A stretch of 31,002 nucleotides of DNA from a virus (Duplodnaviria; Heunggongvirae; Uroviricota; Caudoviricetes), in the IMG/VR virus record IMGVR_UViG_3300027721_000010, positions 1 to 31,002 of that record; one strand, 5' to 3'. Each line of letters opens with the position of its first letter. Positions within the stretch are counted from its first letter, which is position 1. The notes under the pieces were generated by a model. It made no database searches. It was not told the DNA's origin and was given only the letters and a program-made list of their open reading frames with translations. This document shows positions 16,814 through 31,002 of this stretch, in pieces. The translations under genes were made by a program, and so were the position numbers.

Positions 16814-17305
16814 TTATGGATAAAACACAATTTGCATATAAACTCGATTTTGCGTAACAGCATTTGTTAAATTAAAATTTGCTCCATCTCCGTTTGATAA
16901 TTGAATAAATGAGTCAGTAGGACTATTTACAGAAGCTTGGCATAAAAAAGCAGTTGTAAATGCTGGAAAGTTAAATGCGTCTCTAAAAGCATTCATTGTA
17001 ATAAATGTCTTAGAATTAATAATACCTAATGACGATGTTATTCGCATAACACCATTGGCAGCATCTAGTACAGTTAAAGCAAAGGTTGACCCAGTGTTGT
17101 TAAATTCTACAGTAGATGAAAGTACTCCAGGTGCTGCAAATTCAAAACTAATTAATGCTGTTGGAAAACCTCCACCTGGAGCCAAATCAGCCACATCCTG
17201 AGCTGTTGCTTTCACTGTTGCTCCACTCTGTACAATCGCCAACTCTTCAGTCCCTGCAAGGGGAGTGGAAGCACTAGTAAGTTGGGATATTTTTTTATCT
17301 GACAT
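16814..17305 (-). CDS. Putative fibre/virion adaptor protein, KKISQL N-terminal module
   Basis: MSDKKISQLTSASTPLAGTEELAIVQSGATVKATAQDVADL plus beta-rich C-terminus. Confidence 0.7.
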   Translation of the reverse strand: MSDKKISQLTSASTPLAGTEELAIVQSGATVKATAQDVADLAPGGGFPTALISFEFAAPGVLSSTVEFNNTGSTFALTVLDAANGVMRITSSLGIINSKTFITMNAFRDAFNFPAFTTAFLCQASVNSPTDSFIQLSNGDGANFNLTNAVTQNRVYMQIVFYP

Positions 17306-17312
17306 GTTATTT

Positions 17313-17372
17313 TTAATTTTTAATTACAAACGGAAGTCTAAGCCCATTCTTTATTACAAATTCGTTTGCCAT
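17313..17372 (-). pseudogene. 19-aa micro-ORF, possible fibre-gene N-terminal remnant
   Basis: Manual translation MANEFVIKNGLRLPFVIKN; internal direct repeat TTTGTAATwAArAAT; occupies most of an intergenic gap. Confidence 0.4.
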
Positions 17373-17405
17373 TAAACTTCACTTTCCATTTAATAAACAA
17401 TATAA

Positions 17406-17990
17406 TTAAACAACCTCAAATAGAACACTTAGTTGAGCCTCCTCGGTTGATGTTCCAATTGAACCTGTTTCATCACCCGCTATTCTAATAATATCTCCCG
17501 TAGTAAGAGATAAATTTAGCCCACTTGAAAACGCACCAACAGTTACACCCGAATCAGCACTAGTAAGTGTTATTCCCATGCTTCCAACTAAGGTGAAATT
17601 CCCGTCTGCTGTTGTGCTACCCGTCAACGGGTTTGTCATTTTATAAAGGTTAATAGTCCATGACTGACCCACTCCTATGGTCGGTGGTGTTGAACTAATC
17701 CATTTAAATCCCGCAGCTATAATTTTGCAGTTTTGAAGGATTGGCAAAACCGAAGAGTGCGTTGACGCGGGTGATGTTGGAGACCATTCTAATACATCTC
17801 GATTTAATCCGCCAGGGTCGCCACCAAACATATTAACAAATACACCCGTCATCATGTATCGTGTGGGTGCTACTAAATCAGCAATGTCTTGCACTGTAGT
17901 GCTAACTGTTTGACCACTCTGTACAACTGGTAATACCTCTGTCCCTGTAAGGGGTGCAGCTGCGGTGAGCTGACTAATCTTTTTATCCAT
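17406..17990 (-). CDS. Putative fibre/virion adaptor protein, KKISQL N-terminal module
   Basis: MDKKISQLTAAAPLTGTEVLPVVQSGQTVSTTVQDIADL paralogous to 16814-17305; unrelated beta-sandwich-like C-terminus. Confidence 0.7.
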   Translation of the reverse strand: MDKKISQLTAAAPLTGTEVLPVVQSGQTVSTTVQDIADLVAPTRYMMTGVFVNMFGGDPGGLNRDVLEWSPTSPASTHSSVLPILQNCKIIAAGFKWISSTPPTIGVGQSWTINLYKMTNPLTGSTTADGNFTLVGSMGITLTSADSGVTVGAFSSGLNLSLTTGDIIRIAGDETGSIGTSTEEAQLSVLFEVV

Positions 17991-17994
17991 AGTT

Positions 17995-28443: not shown

Positions 28444-28447
28444 TTTA

Positions 28448-28975
28448 TTATACACAACAAGGGACACAACAACTATCTCTACATTCTGTACAAATTGTAA
28501 AAGCAATAGAGGTGTTCCCAGTTGGCATTACATTAGTTGTTTCTGAGTCAGTACAATCACCACAATCAGCAGTACGAGCACTAGGACAAGTGCTACTGTC
28601 TTTAGCGTACTTAAAATAAATCGGCCCGCTGCATCTATTTTGACTAATAATTCTAAATATCAGGCTGGTTTCACAGATACCAATATTAAATGTTCCTACG
28701 TATGCACAAGATGTTACAGTATCAAAGTATATGCCTCCAGCATTCCAACTACTACCACCATCTGTGCTGTATTCAAGTTGTATAACATCACATTCAGCAC
28801 AAATTGCATCACAAGATGTGCAAAGTTCGCATTTAACATTTGAAGCTGCATAAACATCAATGGTGTAAACTTGATTACAGTCAATCGTGGTGGTGGTGGT
28901 GGTTGTTCCCCCTGAGGGCTCCCATCTACGCATAAGTACAACGGGACTGGTAGTAAAATATCCTATGACACTCAT
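28448..28975 (-). CDS. Cys-rich putative virion protein with poly-Thr linker
   Basis: 18 Cys in 175 aa, T7 tract, C-terminal CCVPCCV. Confidence 0.7.
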   Translation of the reverse strand: MSVIGYFTTSPVVLMRRWEPSGGTTTTTTTIDCNQVYTIDVYAASNVKCELCTSCDAICAECDVIQLEYSTDGGSSWNAGGIYFDTVTSCAYVGTFNIGICETSLIFRIISQNRCSGPIYFKYAKDSSTCPSARTADCGDCTDSETTNVMPTGNTSIAFTICTECRDSCCVPCCV

Positions 28976-28978
28976 AGA

Positions 28979-31000
28979 TTATGAACAAGTTGTTTGAGAA
29001 ACATTAAGAGTTACACAGAACAAACGAGCAGCTTGTGCCAAGGTATCACTTGCACTGGCGCAATTACGATACACTCTGATTTGTACCAAGTTTACACCAC
29101 CTGCTACAAAACCAGCTGGAGTGAATGCACCTGTAACAGCACTAATGTTTACATTACCAGCACCAGTAGTTACATCATTCACCGTAGCAGCAGCTGACCA
29201 AGCAGCATCTGAGGCATCAGCATCCTGATAAGCCACTGCTTGAATAGCCCAAACTACAGTATCCTGCGCTGCAGAGGCTGCAAATTTAGCAAGCCAAGTG
29301 AATTGTGCAGTGGCATTGGTTAAATTAATATTACATGGCACTTTAATTGTCCATTCATAATATCTTACTTCAGGATCTTGACCGCCTAAGTCTGCAAAAT
29401 CAACAAGGAAAAAGGTTTGTCCATTTGTAGTGTTAGAAAAACCACCTGCAGCAGTTCCATCAACGATCGATGGCCATCCACCCGCAGTCATTAGTTCAAT
29501 ACTTAACGCTGGTGTGGTACCAGATGTACCTGAGGTTCCTCTTGTTCCAGATGTGCCAGAAGTCCCTGAGGTTCCAGGAGCTCCGTTAACACCACTAGTA
29601 CCATTGGTACCATTAACTCCCGAAGTACCTCTTGTCCCACTTGTACCACTAGTACCAGTTGTGCCAGATGTTCCGTTAACTCCAGATGTTCCGTTAACTC
29701 CTGAAGTACCACTAGTTCCATTAGCACCATTTACTCCAGAGGTACCAGATGTTCCATTAACACCTGAGGTACCGTTGGCACCATTAACTCCCGAAGTACC
29801 ACTTGTACCTCTTGTCCCAGATGTACCGCTTGTACCAGCAGCACCGTTTGCCCCTGATGTACCAGACGTTCCTGATGTTCCGCTAGTTCCAGCAGCTCCG
29901 CTTACACCACTGGTACCACTGGTTCCGCTTGTTCCATTGGCCCCATTAATACCACTTGTTCCACTCGTTCCATTAGTACCTGCATTACCAGTTCTTGAGA
30001 ACATGGCTGCTAGTTGTGCACCGGTTGATGGAAGTGTACCACTAATATATGATACAGGTATCGTGTAATATCCAGCGTTGACTGTTACAGCACCTGTAAC
30101 TTGGAATTGGTTAACCACTGTTCCATTATCTCTACTATAAAAAGCAATAACTCCTCTTGTAGCAGTGGTGGTAGAGTCATCCCAAGTATTATACCAAGCG
30201 GTTTGATTGTTACCAAATTGGTCTAGATTATCTATGTAAATATTAGTAACTGAACCTATGGTTGCGTTATTATATGCAACTATACCATTTCCAGGGTCAG
30301 CATTAGTTGTTGATGTAGAAAAGTTATAAGGAACACCACCTCTTTGACCATTAGTACCACTGGTTCCCGTAGTACCAGACGTTCCTGTGGTGCCACTTGT
30401 GCCAGAGGTTGCAGAGGTGCCCGAAGTACCTGTTGTACCACTGGTTCCACTATTTCCTGATGTACCAGAACTACCACTTGTGCCAGTTGTACCAGAAGTA
30501 CCATTGGTTCCATTAATGCCACTGGTTCCTGATGTACCTGTTGTACCCGAGGTTCCACTGTTTCCACTAGTACCACTAGACCCAGAGGTTCCTGTGGTAC
30601 CAGACGTTCCTGTGGTACCAGAGCTTCCACTAGTTCCTGTAGTACCGCTAGTGCCGTTAATACCACTAGACCCACTTGTACCAGATGTACCGTTTACACC
30701 ACTAGTACCGCTCGTACCATTGACACCAGATGTGCCACTAGTACCGTTTATCCCTGAGGTTCCAGAGGAACCACTTGTTCCATTTATACCGCTTGTACCA
30801 CTCGTACCCGTGGTACCAGATGTTCCGCTCGTTCCACTTACACCACTAGTTCCACTAGTTCCGTTTACACCAGAAGTCCCTGAGGTGCCATTAACACCAG
30901 AGGTTCCTCTTGTTCCTGAAGATCCGCTGCTGCCGCTGGTTCCATTTATTCCAGACGTTCCTGATGTACCTGTCGTACCAGAGGTTCCTGAGGTAGCTGA
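28979..31000 (-). CDS. (Gly-Thr-Ser)n collagen-like fibre protein, 5'-truncated (at least 673 aa)
   Basis: Checked codon by codon: the 28979-30118 frame stays open to the window end; GTS blocks alternate with a globular GGVPY...SRTG domain, then a beta-rich C-terminal domain. Confidence 0.88.
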   Translation of the reverse strand, partial: SATSGTSGTTGTSGTSGINGTSGSSGSSGTRGTSGVNGTSGTSGVNGTSGTSGVSGTSGTSGTTGTSGTSGINGTSGSSGTSGINGTSGTSGVNGTSGTSGVNGTSGTSGSSGINGTSGTTGTSGSSGTTGTSGTTGTSGSSGTSGNSGTSGTTGTSGTSGINGTNGTSGTTGTSGSSGTSGNSGTSGTTGTSGTSATSGTSGTTGTSGTTGTSGTNGQRGGVPYNFSTSTTNADPGNGIVAYNNATIGSVTNIYIDNLDQFGNNQTAWYNTWDDSTTTATRGVIAFYSRDNGTVVNQFQVTGAVTVNAGYYTIPVSYISGTLPSTGAQLAAMFSRTGNAGTNGTSGTSGINGANGTSGTSGTSGVSGAAGTSGTSGTSGTSGANGAAGTSGTSGTRGTSGTSGVNGANGTSGVNGTSGTSGVNGANGTSGTSGVNGTSGVNGTSGTTGTSGTSGTRGTSGVNGTNGTSGVNGAPGTSGTSGTSGTRGTSGTSGTTPALSIELMTAGGWPSIVDGTAAGGFSNTTNGQTFFLVDFADLGGQDPEVRYYEWTIKVPCNINLTNATAQFTWLAKFAASAAQDTVVWAIQAVAYQDADASDAAWSAAATVNDVTTGAGNVNISAVTGAFTPAGFVAGGVNLVQIRVYRNCASASDTLAQAARLFCVTLNVSQTTCS
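29512..29990 (-). repeat. Degenerate 9-nt coding tandem repeat (GTS/GVN/GAN/GTR)
   Basis: About 160-aa Gly-X-Y block in the ORF-track translation. Confidence 0.9.
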
Positions 31001-31002
31001 TG
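30347..31002 (-). repeat. Degenerate 9-nt coding tandem repeat (Gly-X-Y; mostly GTS, GTT, GVN, GIN)
   Basis: Gly at nearly every third codon over about 215 codons; synonymous positions highly varied. Confidence 0.9.

Follow-up and report, generated by a model that had tools for sequence, protein, structure and literature searches.

The window analysed here comprises the first 31,002 nucleotides of a 95,002-bp linear contig (41% G+C, CheckV completeness 82%) from a tailed virus of the Caudoviricetes, IMG/VR record IMGVR_UViG_3300027721_000010, and the region of interest, at positions 16,814 to 31,002, encodes two glycosyltransferase proteins among genes for Thr-rich and collagen-like products. 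One of them is a 338-amino-acid (aa) enzyme and the other is a 1138-aa fusion whose last domain is of the TibC/Aah type. The best reading of this arrangement, to which a probability of about 0.7 is given, is that the phage would O-glycosylate its own virion proteins in the cytoplasm with two enzyme-acceptor systems, the 338-aa enzyme being putatively paired with poly-Thr tags and the TibC-like fusion with proline-free collagen-like fibres. A first-pass annotation of the same sequence had proposed that the phage glycosylates its own cytoplasmically assembled fibres through one shared system that gives them a mucin-like, possibly methylated coat. The idea of self-glycosylation is supported by the present analysis and all six genes with Thr or Thr/Ser tracts, as well as both enzymes, were recovered where that annotation had placed them. 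The evidence points, however, to two separate pairings in place of the single shared system, and the GTS tracts are collagen-like, not mucin-like; glycosylation itself, the sugar and its methylation are predictions.

The C-terminal domain of the fusion (domain 4) had been called TibC/Aah-like. This call is confirmed by a score of 271.1 bits against the TIGR04414 model (NCBI equivalog cut-off 200), with residues 799-1131 of the protein lying on positions 20-368 of a profile of 374, and by a match to the TibC structure 4rap (E 6e-48, chain residues 42-379). Models of lipopolysaccharide (LPS) heptosyltransferases give the same domain 28 bits, versus 271 for the TibC-specific model. In TibC, Asp-110 is the catalytic base, Thr-226, Lys-230 and Trp-305 bind phosphate or sugar in the donor site, and an iron finger is formed by Cys-339, 342, 358 and 370 (PMC4358343). 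The residues D876, T987, K991 and W1055 of the phage protein align with the first four of these. Among 67 phage homologues, D, T and K are invariant at D876, T987 and K991, the position of W1055 is kept in 66, and the iron-finger cysteines (C1090, C1093, C1109 and C1121) are found in all 67. Position 300 of TibC is a Ser in the phage domain, as in Aah. Because of this score and this active site, domain 4 can be regarded as a real member of a protein-directed family, and the characterised members of that family (BAHT) glycosylate proteins in the cytoplasm and have genes that adjoin those of their substrates (PMC4358343). No autotransporter gene is present in the window. Instead, the fusion gene abuts the gene of a 175-aa poly-Thr, Cys-rich protein and a giant repeat gene, as annotated initially, the latter encoding a collagen-like fibre.

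The pair formed by a TibC-like fusion and a proline-free collagen recurs across unrelated phages. Related stretches confirmed in IMG/VR numbered 159, and the counts that follow cover the 80 loci that were fetched. The order GT-A, GT4, TibC is kept in them and the methyltransferase is optional. A long collagen-like open reading frame (ORF), mostly convergent with the fusion and beginning just past its stop, is present in 59 of the 80. When the loci were grouped at 85% identity, 41 clusters were obtained, 35 of which extend 3 kb or more downstream; the distance to a collagen-like ORF is at most 1 kb in 13 of these 35 and at most 3 kb in 22, and such an ORF is present anywhere in the locus in 29. 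In several lineages, contigs of 137-321 kb among them, the fusion and the collagen are the sole flank genes in common with this phage. Loci of this 137-321 kb type contain no poly-Thr ORFs and no 338-aa enzyme gene, and the enzyme was also absent from three such contigs searched whole. The pair was observed as well in the Microcystis phage Mel-JY01, in a 735-kb megaphage and in a contig from an Ignavibacteriaceae metagenome-assembled genome (MAG). In the paired collagens, the X position is Thr or Ser, the Y position is Ser, Pro is close to 0, and Ser and Thr together occupy 74-94% of the X and Y positions.

Two observations on these records deserve mention in their own right. In the Mel-JY01 entry (PP395634.1), the (G-T/S-S)n collagen-like gene lies on the plus strand at 2-3052, encodes more than 1000 aa and runs off the start of the record, and the minus-strand 'hypothetical proteins' annotated over it in GenBank (1-651 and 739-2298, rich in Pro, Val and Glu) are its antisense shadows. 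In parallel, short contigs binned with MAGs of Sediminibacterium, Chitinophaga and Lutibacter carry the fusion at 61-68% identity; they are possibly mis-binned phage DNA and give a weak hint of Bacteroidota hosts. A megablast search of the region against INPHARED gave no match.

In the window itself, the first-pass annotation had described the giant gene as a (GTS)n gene and the glycan coat as mucin-like. The (G-T/S-S)n repeats are indeed present in the genes at 20790-21488 and 28979-31002, but they are of the Gly-X-Y collagen type, and their long uninterrupted periodicity points to the collagen family for both genes, with a predicted triple helix. The second gene is a single ATG-started ORF of 1685 aa that extends past the window to 34036, and the ORF listing lends no support to a -1 frameshift within it. 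Its product holds 322 Gly-X-Y triplets, counted in runs of at least 8, with 62% Thr and 22% Ser at X, 71% Ser at Y and 0.2% Pro. The first gene encodes a 232-aa protein with 20 Gly-X-Y triplets in which X is mainly T and Y mainly S. By comparison, Pro makes up 19-31% of the X residues in typical bacterial collagens, and the Thr-rich ones carry Thr at Y (PMC8968730). The giant fibre is a candidate acceptor of the TibC-like domain.

Three domains precede the TibC-like one in the fusion (Table 1). In the second, of GT-A type, D96 and D98 (alignment numbering) are invariant, and the closest structures found with Foldseek belong to the retaining families GT6, GT8 and GT24. The possibility that this domain is a copy of the 338-aa protein was rejected, as BLASTP detected no similarity between the two. 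By inspection of the N-termini, neither the 338-aa nor the 1138-aa enzyme has a signal peptide or a membrane segment.

The 338-aa enzyme falls into phrog_4417, a family of unknown function, and found no sequence match in Pfam, NCBIfam or the PDB. This family is large (2705 matches, 751 clusters at 50% identity), and D108 and D110 are invariant in an alignment of 81 diverse members. The AlphaFold2 model of the protein (predicted local distance difference test, pLDDT, 97.6) has a GT-A fold whose nearest neighbours in the PDB are WbbM, glycogenin, alpha-1,3-galactosyltransferase and UGGT, with modest template modelling (TM) scores. Among Swiss-Prot folds, the top nine matches are plant SGT1 (GT96) and hydroxyproline O-arabinosyltransferases (HPATs, GT95), aligned over residues 1-332. 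Normalised by query, their TM-scores are 0.51-0.63 and those of GT8, which comes next, 0.41-0.48. The first-pass description of the enzyme as HPAT/SGT1-like is thus borne out by the closest fold and by the DxD motif, but not by sequence membership, the Pfam HPAT model PF23452 giving no match to the protein at E <=0.1. A search of the contig with the same model also gave no match and is uninformative, since control genomes were equally without one. In the model, the catalytic fold begins as early as residue 4, and the N-terminus has no hydrophobic stretch, which leaves the enzyme without a type II membrane anchor. Longer relatives carry GT2, GT32, GT6, methyltransferase or radical-SAM (S-adenosylmethionine) domains, and such fusions fit a glycan pathway.

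As annotated initially, the 338-aa gene lies between poly-Thr genes, those of an 80-aa and a 48-aa protein. The interval 18249-19144 is poly-Thr as described, but it is made of two genes rather than one (213 aa and 80 aa). A homologue of the 80-aa protein is kept next to the enzyme gene in related contigs, at 81% identity in one of them for example. In the 213-aa protein, T7 (a run of seven Thr) occurs at residue 47 and T4 at residue 89, and the Lcl_C head is recognised by PF07603 with 39.4 bits (cut-off 34.9). Over the whole contig, 21 runs of at least 7 Thr were counted in 30,466 aa, versus 0.0004 expected. Because the runs are written in mixed synonymous codons, selection acts on the protein and not on a DNA repeat. 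Beyond the window, Thr tracts occur in three more structural-module proteins. The major head protein (76239-77792) has no Thr run, and in this phage the tagged proteins are fibre or decoration proteins and a 395-aa structural-module protein. Modification by the host's general O-glycosylation system was set aside: that system is extracytoplasmic and requires D-[ST]-[AVILMT], a motif that the tracts lack, as the first-pass annotation had already observed.

The small proteins of the region are modular. An N-terminal module of family A is common to the 76-, 213- and 80-aa proteins and one of family B to the 48- and 232-aa proteins, and each module precedes a differing stalk (none, poly-Thr or collagen) and a differing head. 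Judged from their sequences, these proteins look like a kit of interchangeable appendages. Poly-Thr and collagen stalks are themselves interchangeable, since the module that precedes T9 in the 48-aa protein is found ahead of collagen repeats in the 232-aa one.

Co-occurrence and synteny across phage genomes had been proposed as a test of the glycosylation hypothesis, and the outcome is positive for both enzymes. For the 338-aa family, a translated search of isolate genomes retrieved 77 phages, mostly of Bacillota hosts with one Chryseobacterium phage, and no Mycobacterium phage is among these 77 records. Eight isolates were looked at, with hosts in Enterococcus, Clostridium, Lactococcus, Lacticaseibacillus, Staphylococcus, Lactobacillus and Chryseobacterium. 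In all eight, a gene adjoining the 338-aa homologue encodes a Thr-rich C-terminal tail, and in seven the homologue lies within the structural module. The same tag is often found on both the capsid and the tail-tube proteins of a carrier. In the Bacillota siphoviruses examined, the enzyme gene separates the major tail or major head gene from the structural gene that comes next. For instance, it comes after the major tail gene in Enterococcus phage phiFL1A, in which Thr runs end the major head and major tail proteins. In Lactococcus phage 1706, the capsid and major structural proteins both have a Thr run and then HHD at the C-terminus, and in Lacticaseibacillus phage R9.1 two structural proteins likewise close with a Thr run and then SHV. 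Thr tails were observed on a head protein, the tail tube and the portal of Clostridium phage phiCTP1, and the same pattern in Chryseobacterium phage MA9V-3, Enterococcus phage 9183 and Staphylococcus phage DH5. In Lactobacillus phage SAC12B, a myovirus, the upstream 'Ig domain containing protein' (19422-19979 on the plus strand of the fetched stretch) ends in seven PTTV[KA] repeats. This phage has no (Thr)6 anywhere; it was missed by the Thr-run filter and its tail was found by reading the neighbouring gene. The PTTV repeat is an extensin-like variant of the Thr tag.

A control set was assembled by searching with the phiFL1A tail protein stripped of its Thr tail, which gave six phages of Streptococcus, Pediococcus, Lactobacillus and Bacillus with homologous tail and head proteins. 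The enzyme gene and Thr-rich runs are both absent from all six. The alignment of their head proteins with that of phiFL1A extends to the motif EIPEGVVEATI, beyond which poly-Thr is found in phiFL1A alone. The contrast between 8/8 and 0/6 has a Fisher probability of about 3e-4, calculated by hand and with relatedness ignored. Loci related to the window have small poly-Thr ORFs to either side of the enzyme gene, as is the case here. Two complete relatives in which the gene occupies another genome site have T7 tracts, two of them flanking the gene, and three contigs that lack the 338-aa gene have essentially no T7 tracts.

These pairings lead to the following proposal. In the first system, the 338-aa enzyme would add the first sugar to the hydroxyls of poly-Thr tags, borne as stalks by the small modular fibre or decoration proteins and also by the three larger virion-module proteins encoded beyond the window. 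In the second, the TibC/Aah-type domain would add a sugar, for which heptose is one option, to Ser or Thr of the proline-free (Gly-Thr/Ser-Ser)n fibres, after which the fused GT4-like and GT-A domains may extend the glycan and the methyltransferase may cap it. The GT2 protein and the methyltransferase encoded at 10.2-12.1 kb would perhaps also extend and methylate glycan. The reaction is predicted to take place in the host cytoplasm, before or during virion assembly; since the cytoplasm is where virion proteins fold and neither enzyme has an export signal, the modification would have to be cytoplasmic. As to the benefit, the sugars could stabilise the triple helix in place of hydroxyproline, stiffen the stalks or protect them from proteases, shield the particle, or take part in adhesion. 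Helix-stabilising sugars are attractive by analogy with the glycosylated collagen-like BclA, since proline and charged residues are missing from the phage repeats.

The two enzymes might, instead, belong to one pathway in which the 338-aa enzyme initiates glycans on poly-Thr and collagen alike and the fusion, the GT2 protein and the methyltransferase only extend and methylate them, or in which this order is reversed. In most related loci of this phage's type, both enzyme genes are at most 10 kb apart, a single N-terminal module can precede poly-Thr or collagen stalks, and 338-aa homologues are fused to GT2 and methyltransferase domains, one such GT2 resembling that of the window. Nevertheless, large unrelated contigs have the fusion and the collagen but neither the 338-aa enzyme nor poly-Thr, Bacillota phages have the 338-aa family and Thr tails but no TibC-like gene or collagen, and the TibC family is itself initiating and protein-directed (PMC4358343). 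A single pathway is therefore considered unlikely.

Less probable again is the modification of host-envelope glycans (LPS core, capsule or teichoic acids), directed against superinfection or serving release, by genes that happen to reside in an accessory-rich fibre region. This is the usual interpretation of phage glycosyltransferases (PMC7029224, PMC10202952). Envelope biosynthesis often involves GT4, GT2 and GT8-like folds, and the GT9 relatives of the TibC-like domain are LPS heptosyltransferases, to which weak matches were seen. However, the scores of 271 and 28 bits reported above separate the domain from those enzymes, and its iron finger is intact. Such a role would also leave unexplained why Thr tails on capsid and tail proteins are tied to the presence of the 338-aa gene and why one collagen composition tracks the fusion across unrelated phages. 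Moreover, the position of the gene in the Bacillota siphoviruses examined, between a major tail or head gene and the next structural gene, argues against it.

It is just as improbable that the tracts are unglycosylated stalks and recombination hot spots whose association with the enzymes arises from shared hypervariable fibre cassettes, the enzymes making some other product. Fibre regions are known variable islands (PMC10202952). Yet, in Bacillota phages the tags are on conserved major capsid and tail-tube proteins and not on fibres, and they are lost along with the enzyme gene; the pair of fusion and collagen is kept where all the flanking genes differ. Finally, a role in DNA glycosylation, with hypermodified bases as a protection from restriction, is often found for phage glycosyltransferases (PMC12619734) but is very improbable here, as the thymidylate-synthase-type hydroxymethylase (PF00303) was not found in the 82% complete contig, the TibC family acts on proteins, the genes lie amid fibre genes here and beside major capsid or tail genes in seven of eight isolates, and neither the joint gain and loss of Thr tails and enzyme nor the collagen composition that tracks the fusion would be accounted for.

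Several points nonetheless weigh against glycosylation of virion proteins by two systems. All of the support for it is comparative genomics, and Thr tracts also serve as flexible stalks independently of glycans. The 338-aa enzyme has no sequence membership in GT95 or GT96, PF23452 matching only 3 of its 81 relatives and weakly so (best E 0.012). Six of the 35 collagen-scored clusters are without an uninterrupted run of at least 8 Gly-X-Y triplets within 10 kb. The isolate counts ignore phylogeny and come from small samples (8 versus 6), and SAC12B departs from the pattern, with an enzyme gene surrounded by replication genes and a tail made of a PTTV repeat, not a Thr run. In addition, TibC is a free-standing dodecamer that acts on a beta-helix, whereas the phage domain is the tail of a fusion and faces an acceptor of the collagen type.

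The donor sugar raises a further difficulty. Arg-286 of TibC contacts the adenine N1 of ADP-heptose, which accounts for the use of an ADP-activated sugar (PMC4358343). The corresponding residue of the phage domain is Thr-1036 (28132-28134), in an alignment that follows a gap and may be offset by one or two residues, and Thr is found there in 61 of the 67 homologues and Arg in one. Because of this replacement, the donor may not be ADP-heptose, and Thr at this position may mark a clade that uses another donor nucleotide. Families of the ADP-heptose pathway (PF01467 and PF13580) were likewise not found in the contig, at its 82% completeness. The lack of ADP-heptose and hydroxymethylase genes weakens the heptose and the DNA readings respectively, although supply of the donor by the host or genes in the missing sequence could account for it.

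The region as a whole is a minus-strand block of genes for small modular proteins and fibres with one large plus-strand gene, that of the fusion. A lysis cassette at about 21.5-24.8 kb parts it into two blocks and holds a glycoside hydrolase family 19 (GH19) endolysin and a membrane protein with tandem PAS domains. At the near end of the region, 163-aa and 194-aa proteins (16814-17990, minus strand) have in common a third N-terminal module (KKISQLT...) without a Thr tract; these, like the 147-aa Thr-rich protein, probably belong to the fibres or serve as adaptors. The terminase, the portal protein and the major head protein are encoded further along the contig. Upstream of the region, the GT2 and methyltransferase genes (10208-12084) are found in a replication-type block beside RecA, PhoH and endonuclease VII genes. 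The GT2 protein has 31% identity (E 2e-9) to a GT2 domain fused to a homologue of the 338-aa enzyme and is possibly part of the same glycan pathway. Methyltransf_24 domains are also fused to such homologues in other genomes, and the comparison of the window's methyltransferase with the one fused to a 338-aa homologue gave no significant similarity.

Table 1. Positions of the contig features referred to in the text, with the matches or sequence traits that define them.
Feature	Position	Strand	Basis or remark
257-aa GT2-family glycosyltransferase	10208..10981	+	PF00535 E 7.5e-8
219-aa methyltransferase	11425..12084	+	Methyltransf_24; weak match to rhamnosyl O-methyltransferase CmcI
76-aa protein, family A N-terminal module (KLKAYVR.DGTGR...ECC), without poly-Thr	17995..18225	-	N-terminus aligned by eye with 213-aa and 80-aa proteins; no Pfam match
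213-aa protein: family A module, T7 stalk, Lcl_C (DUF1566-type) head	18249..18890	-	PF07603, phrog_4245
80-aa protein: family A module, then T7, T7 and T8 runs	18902..19144	-	Candidate acceptor of the 338-aa enzyme
338-aa GT-A glycosyltransferase	19156..20172	-	phrog_4417 E 1e-54; DxD D108/D110
48-aa protein: family B N-terminal module (IPSRQIGW...LLWQIAKQ), then T9-Pro end	20201..20347	-	Candidate acceptor
147-aa protein, 13.6% Thr	20350..20793	-	No match in Pfam and PHROG searches
232-aa protein: family B module, then (G-T-S)n collagen-like repeats	20790..21488	-	PF01391 E 5e-12
Protein with two PAS domains and a C-terminal membrane segment, without recognisable output domain	21943-23055	-	Adjoins GH19 endolysin
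GH19 endolysin	23293-23892		Lysis cassette
1138-aa fusion, domain 1 (aa 1-170), SAM-dependent methyltransferase	25027..25536	+	Methyltransf_23 and Methyltransf_11 at aa 21-101; 3cc8 E 2e-6
1138-aa fusion, domain 2 (aa 171-450), GT-A	25537..26376	+	Invariant DxD; model pLDDT 93.6
1138-aa fusion, domain 3 (aa 451-790), GT1/GT4-type GT-B	26377..27396	+	PF00534 E 8e-11 and PF13692 E 3e-10 at aa 622-756; phrog_2170 glycosyltransferase
1138-aa fusion, domain 4 (aa 791-1138), TibC/Aah-type (BAHT-like)	27397..28443	+	TIGR04414; 4rap; four-Cys iron finger
175-aa protein: short N-terminus, T7 stalk, Cys-rich head	28448..28975	-	Weak Pfam matches
Giant collagen-like fibre gene	28979-34036 (window part 28979..31002)	-	PF01391 E 1e-53; PHROG tail-fibre families
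366-aa Cys-rich protein	69885-70985	-	Fourteen T7 runs, 11-residue period (PPTTTTTTT and 2-3 variable residues)
395-aa structural-module protein	73162-74349	-	Thr/Ser-rich C-terminal tail

If virion glycosylation by these systems is real, glycosylated particles would be expected in putative crAss-type Bacteroidota phages, in dairy and enterococcal phages, in cyanophages and in megaphages. This would bear on recognition by antibodies and host defences, on the folding and binding of fibres, and on the behaviour of the particles in mass spectrometry and cryo-electron microscopy. The TibC family would reach beyond autotransporters, the plant HPAT/SGT1 fold would gain a viral and bacterial counterpart, and encoded tags of Thr7-10 together with a single cytoplasmic enzyme might be of use in glyco-engineering. 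Sugar-coating of phage particles may be widespread. A bolder version, which is put forward tentatively and falls somewhat short of even odds, is that environmental, gut-type and dairy phages commonly glycosylate their virions by means of two portable pairs of enzyme and tag, with sugars that are structurally required in the collagens, where they replace hydroxyproline, and with poly-Thr as a natural encoded tag for cytoplasmic glycosylation. Several of the carriers can be cultured, and direct testing is therefore possible.

To our knowledge, glycosylation of phage particles has been demonstrated in mycobacteriophages only. Two papers state that glycosyltransferases of these phages O-glycosylate their own virion proteins (PMC12619734, PMC12582341, citing Freeman et al. 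2023), and a later survey of ten other phages found no glycosylation (PMC12894461). The tags of the Bacillota relatives are located at the C-termini of capsid and tail-tube proteins, as those sources report for mycobacteriophages. The enzyme families are different, however, the hosts here are of the Bacteroidota type, Bacillota and cyanobacteria, and the proposed acceptors are homopolymeric Thr tags and collagen repeats. A full-text literature search found no paper on either enzyme-tract pairing.

With TibC and Aah (BAHT, TIGR04414; PDB 4rap and 4rb4; substrates TibA and AIDA-I), the fusion has in common near-full-length homology over its last domain, the catalytic Asp, the binding residues and the iron finger, a cytoplasmic action that is predicted for the phage domain, and an enzyme gene whose neighbour encodes a repetitive surface protein rich in Ser and Thr. 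It differs in that the phage domain is the last of four in a 1138-aa protein and has Thr in place of Arg-286. The 338-aa enzyme resembles the plant HPATs and SGT1, a peptidyl-serine alpha-galactosyltransferase, in its GT-A fold, in its DxD motif and in its association with runs of hydroxy amino acids in extended repetitive proteins. On the other hand, sequence identity is only 10-13%, the phage protein is viral, cytoplasmic and without a membrane anchor, and its acceptor is likely to be Thr rather than Hyp or Ser.

For the putative collagen-like acceptors, a close parallel is BclA, an exosporium protein whose repeats are Gly-Pro-Thr with Pro at X. In Bacillus anthracis and B. cereus, as with BclA1 of C. 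difficile, it forms a glycosylated, Thr-rich collagen-like filament, and its sugars are thought to stabilise the helix via hydration (PMC8968730). The phage fibres differ in having Thr or Ser at X, Ser at Y and no Pro, the enzymes are not the same, and a spore is replaced by a virion. Giant viruses offer another comparison, as A064R of PBCV-1 unites two glycosyltransferases and a methyltransferase in one protein and L230 of mimivirus acts on viral collagen-like proteins (PMC9614988). They share with this phage the multi-domain enzyme with glycosyltransferase and methyltransferase parts, a glycan on the virus's own structural protein, as is proposed here, and the viral collagen as an acceptor. 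Yet these are eukaryotic viruses with other folds and linkages (an N-glycan on the capsid, glucose on hydroxylysine) and without a TibC-type domain. O-glycosylation of mycobacteriophage virions by phage enzymes and protein heptosylation by TibC are already established; what is new here is the enzyme families, the proposed acceptors and the host ranges.

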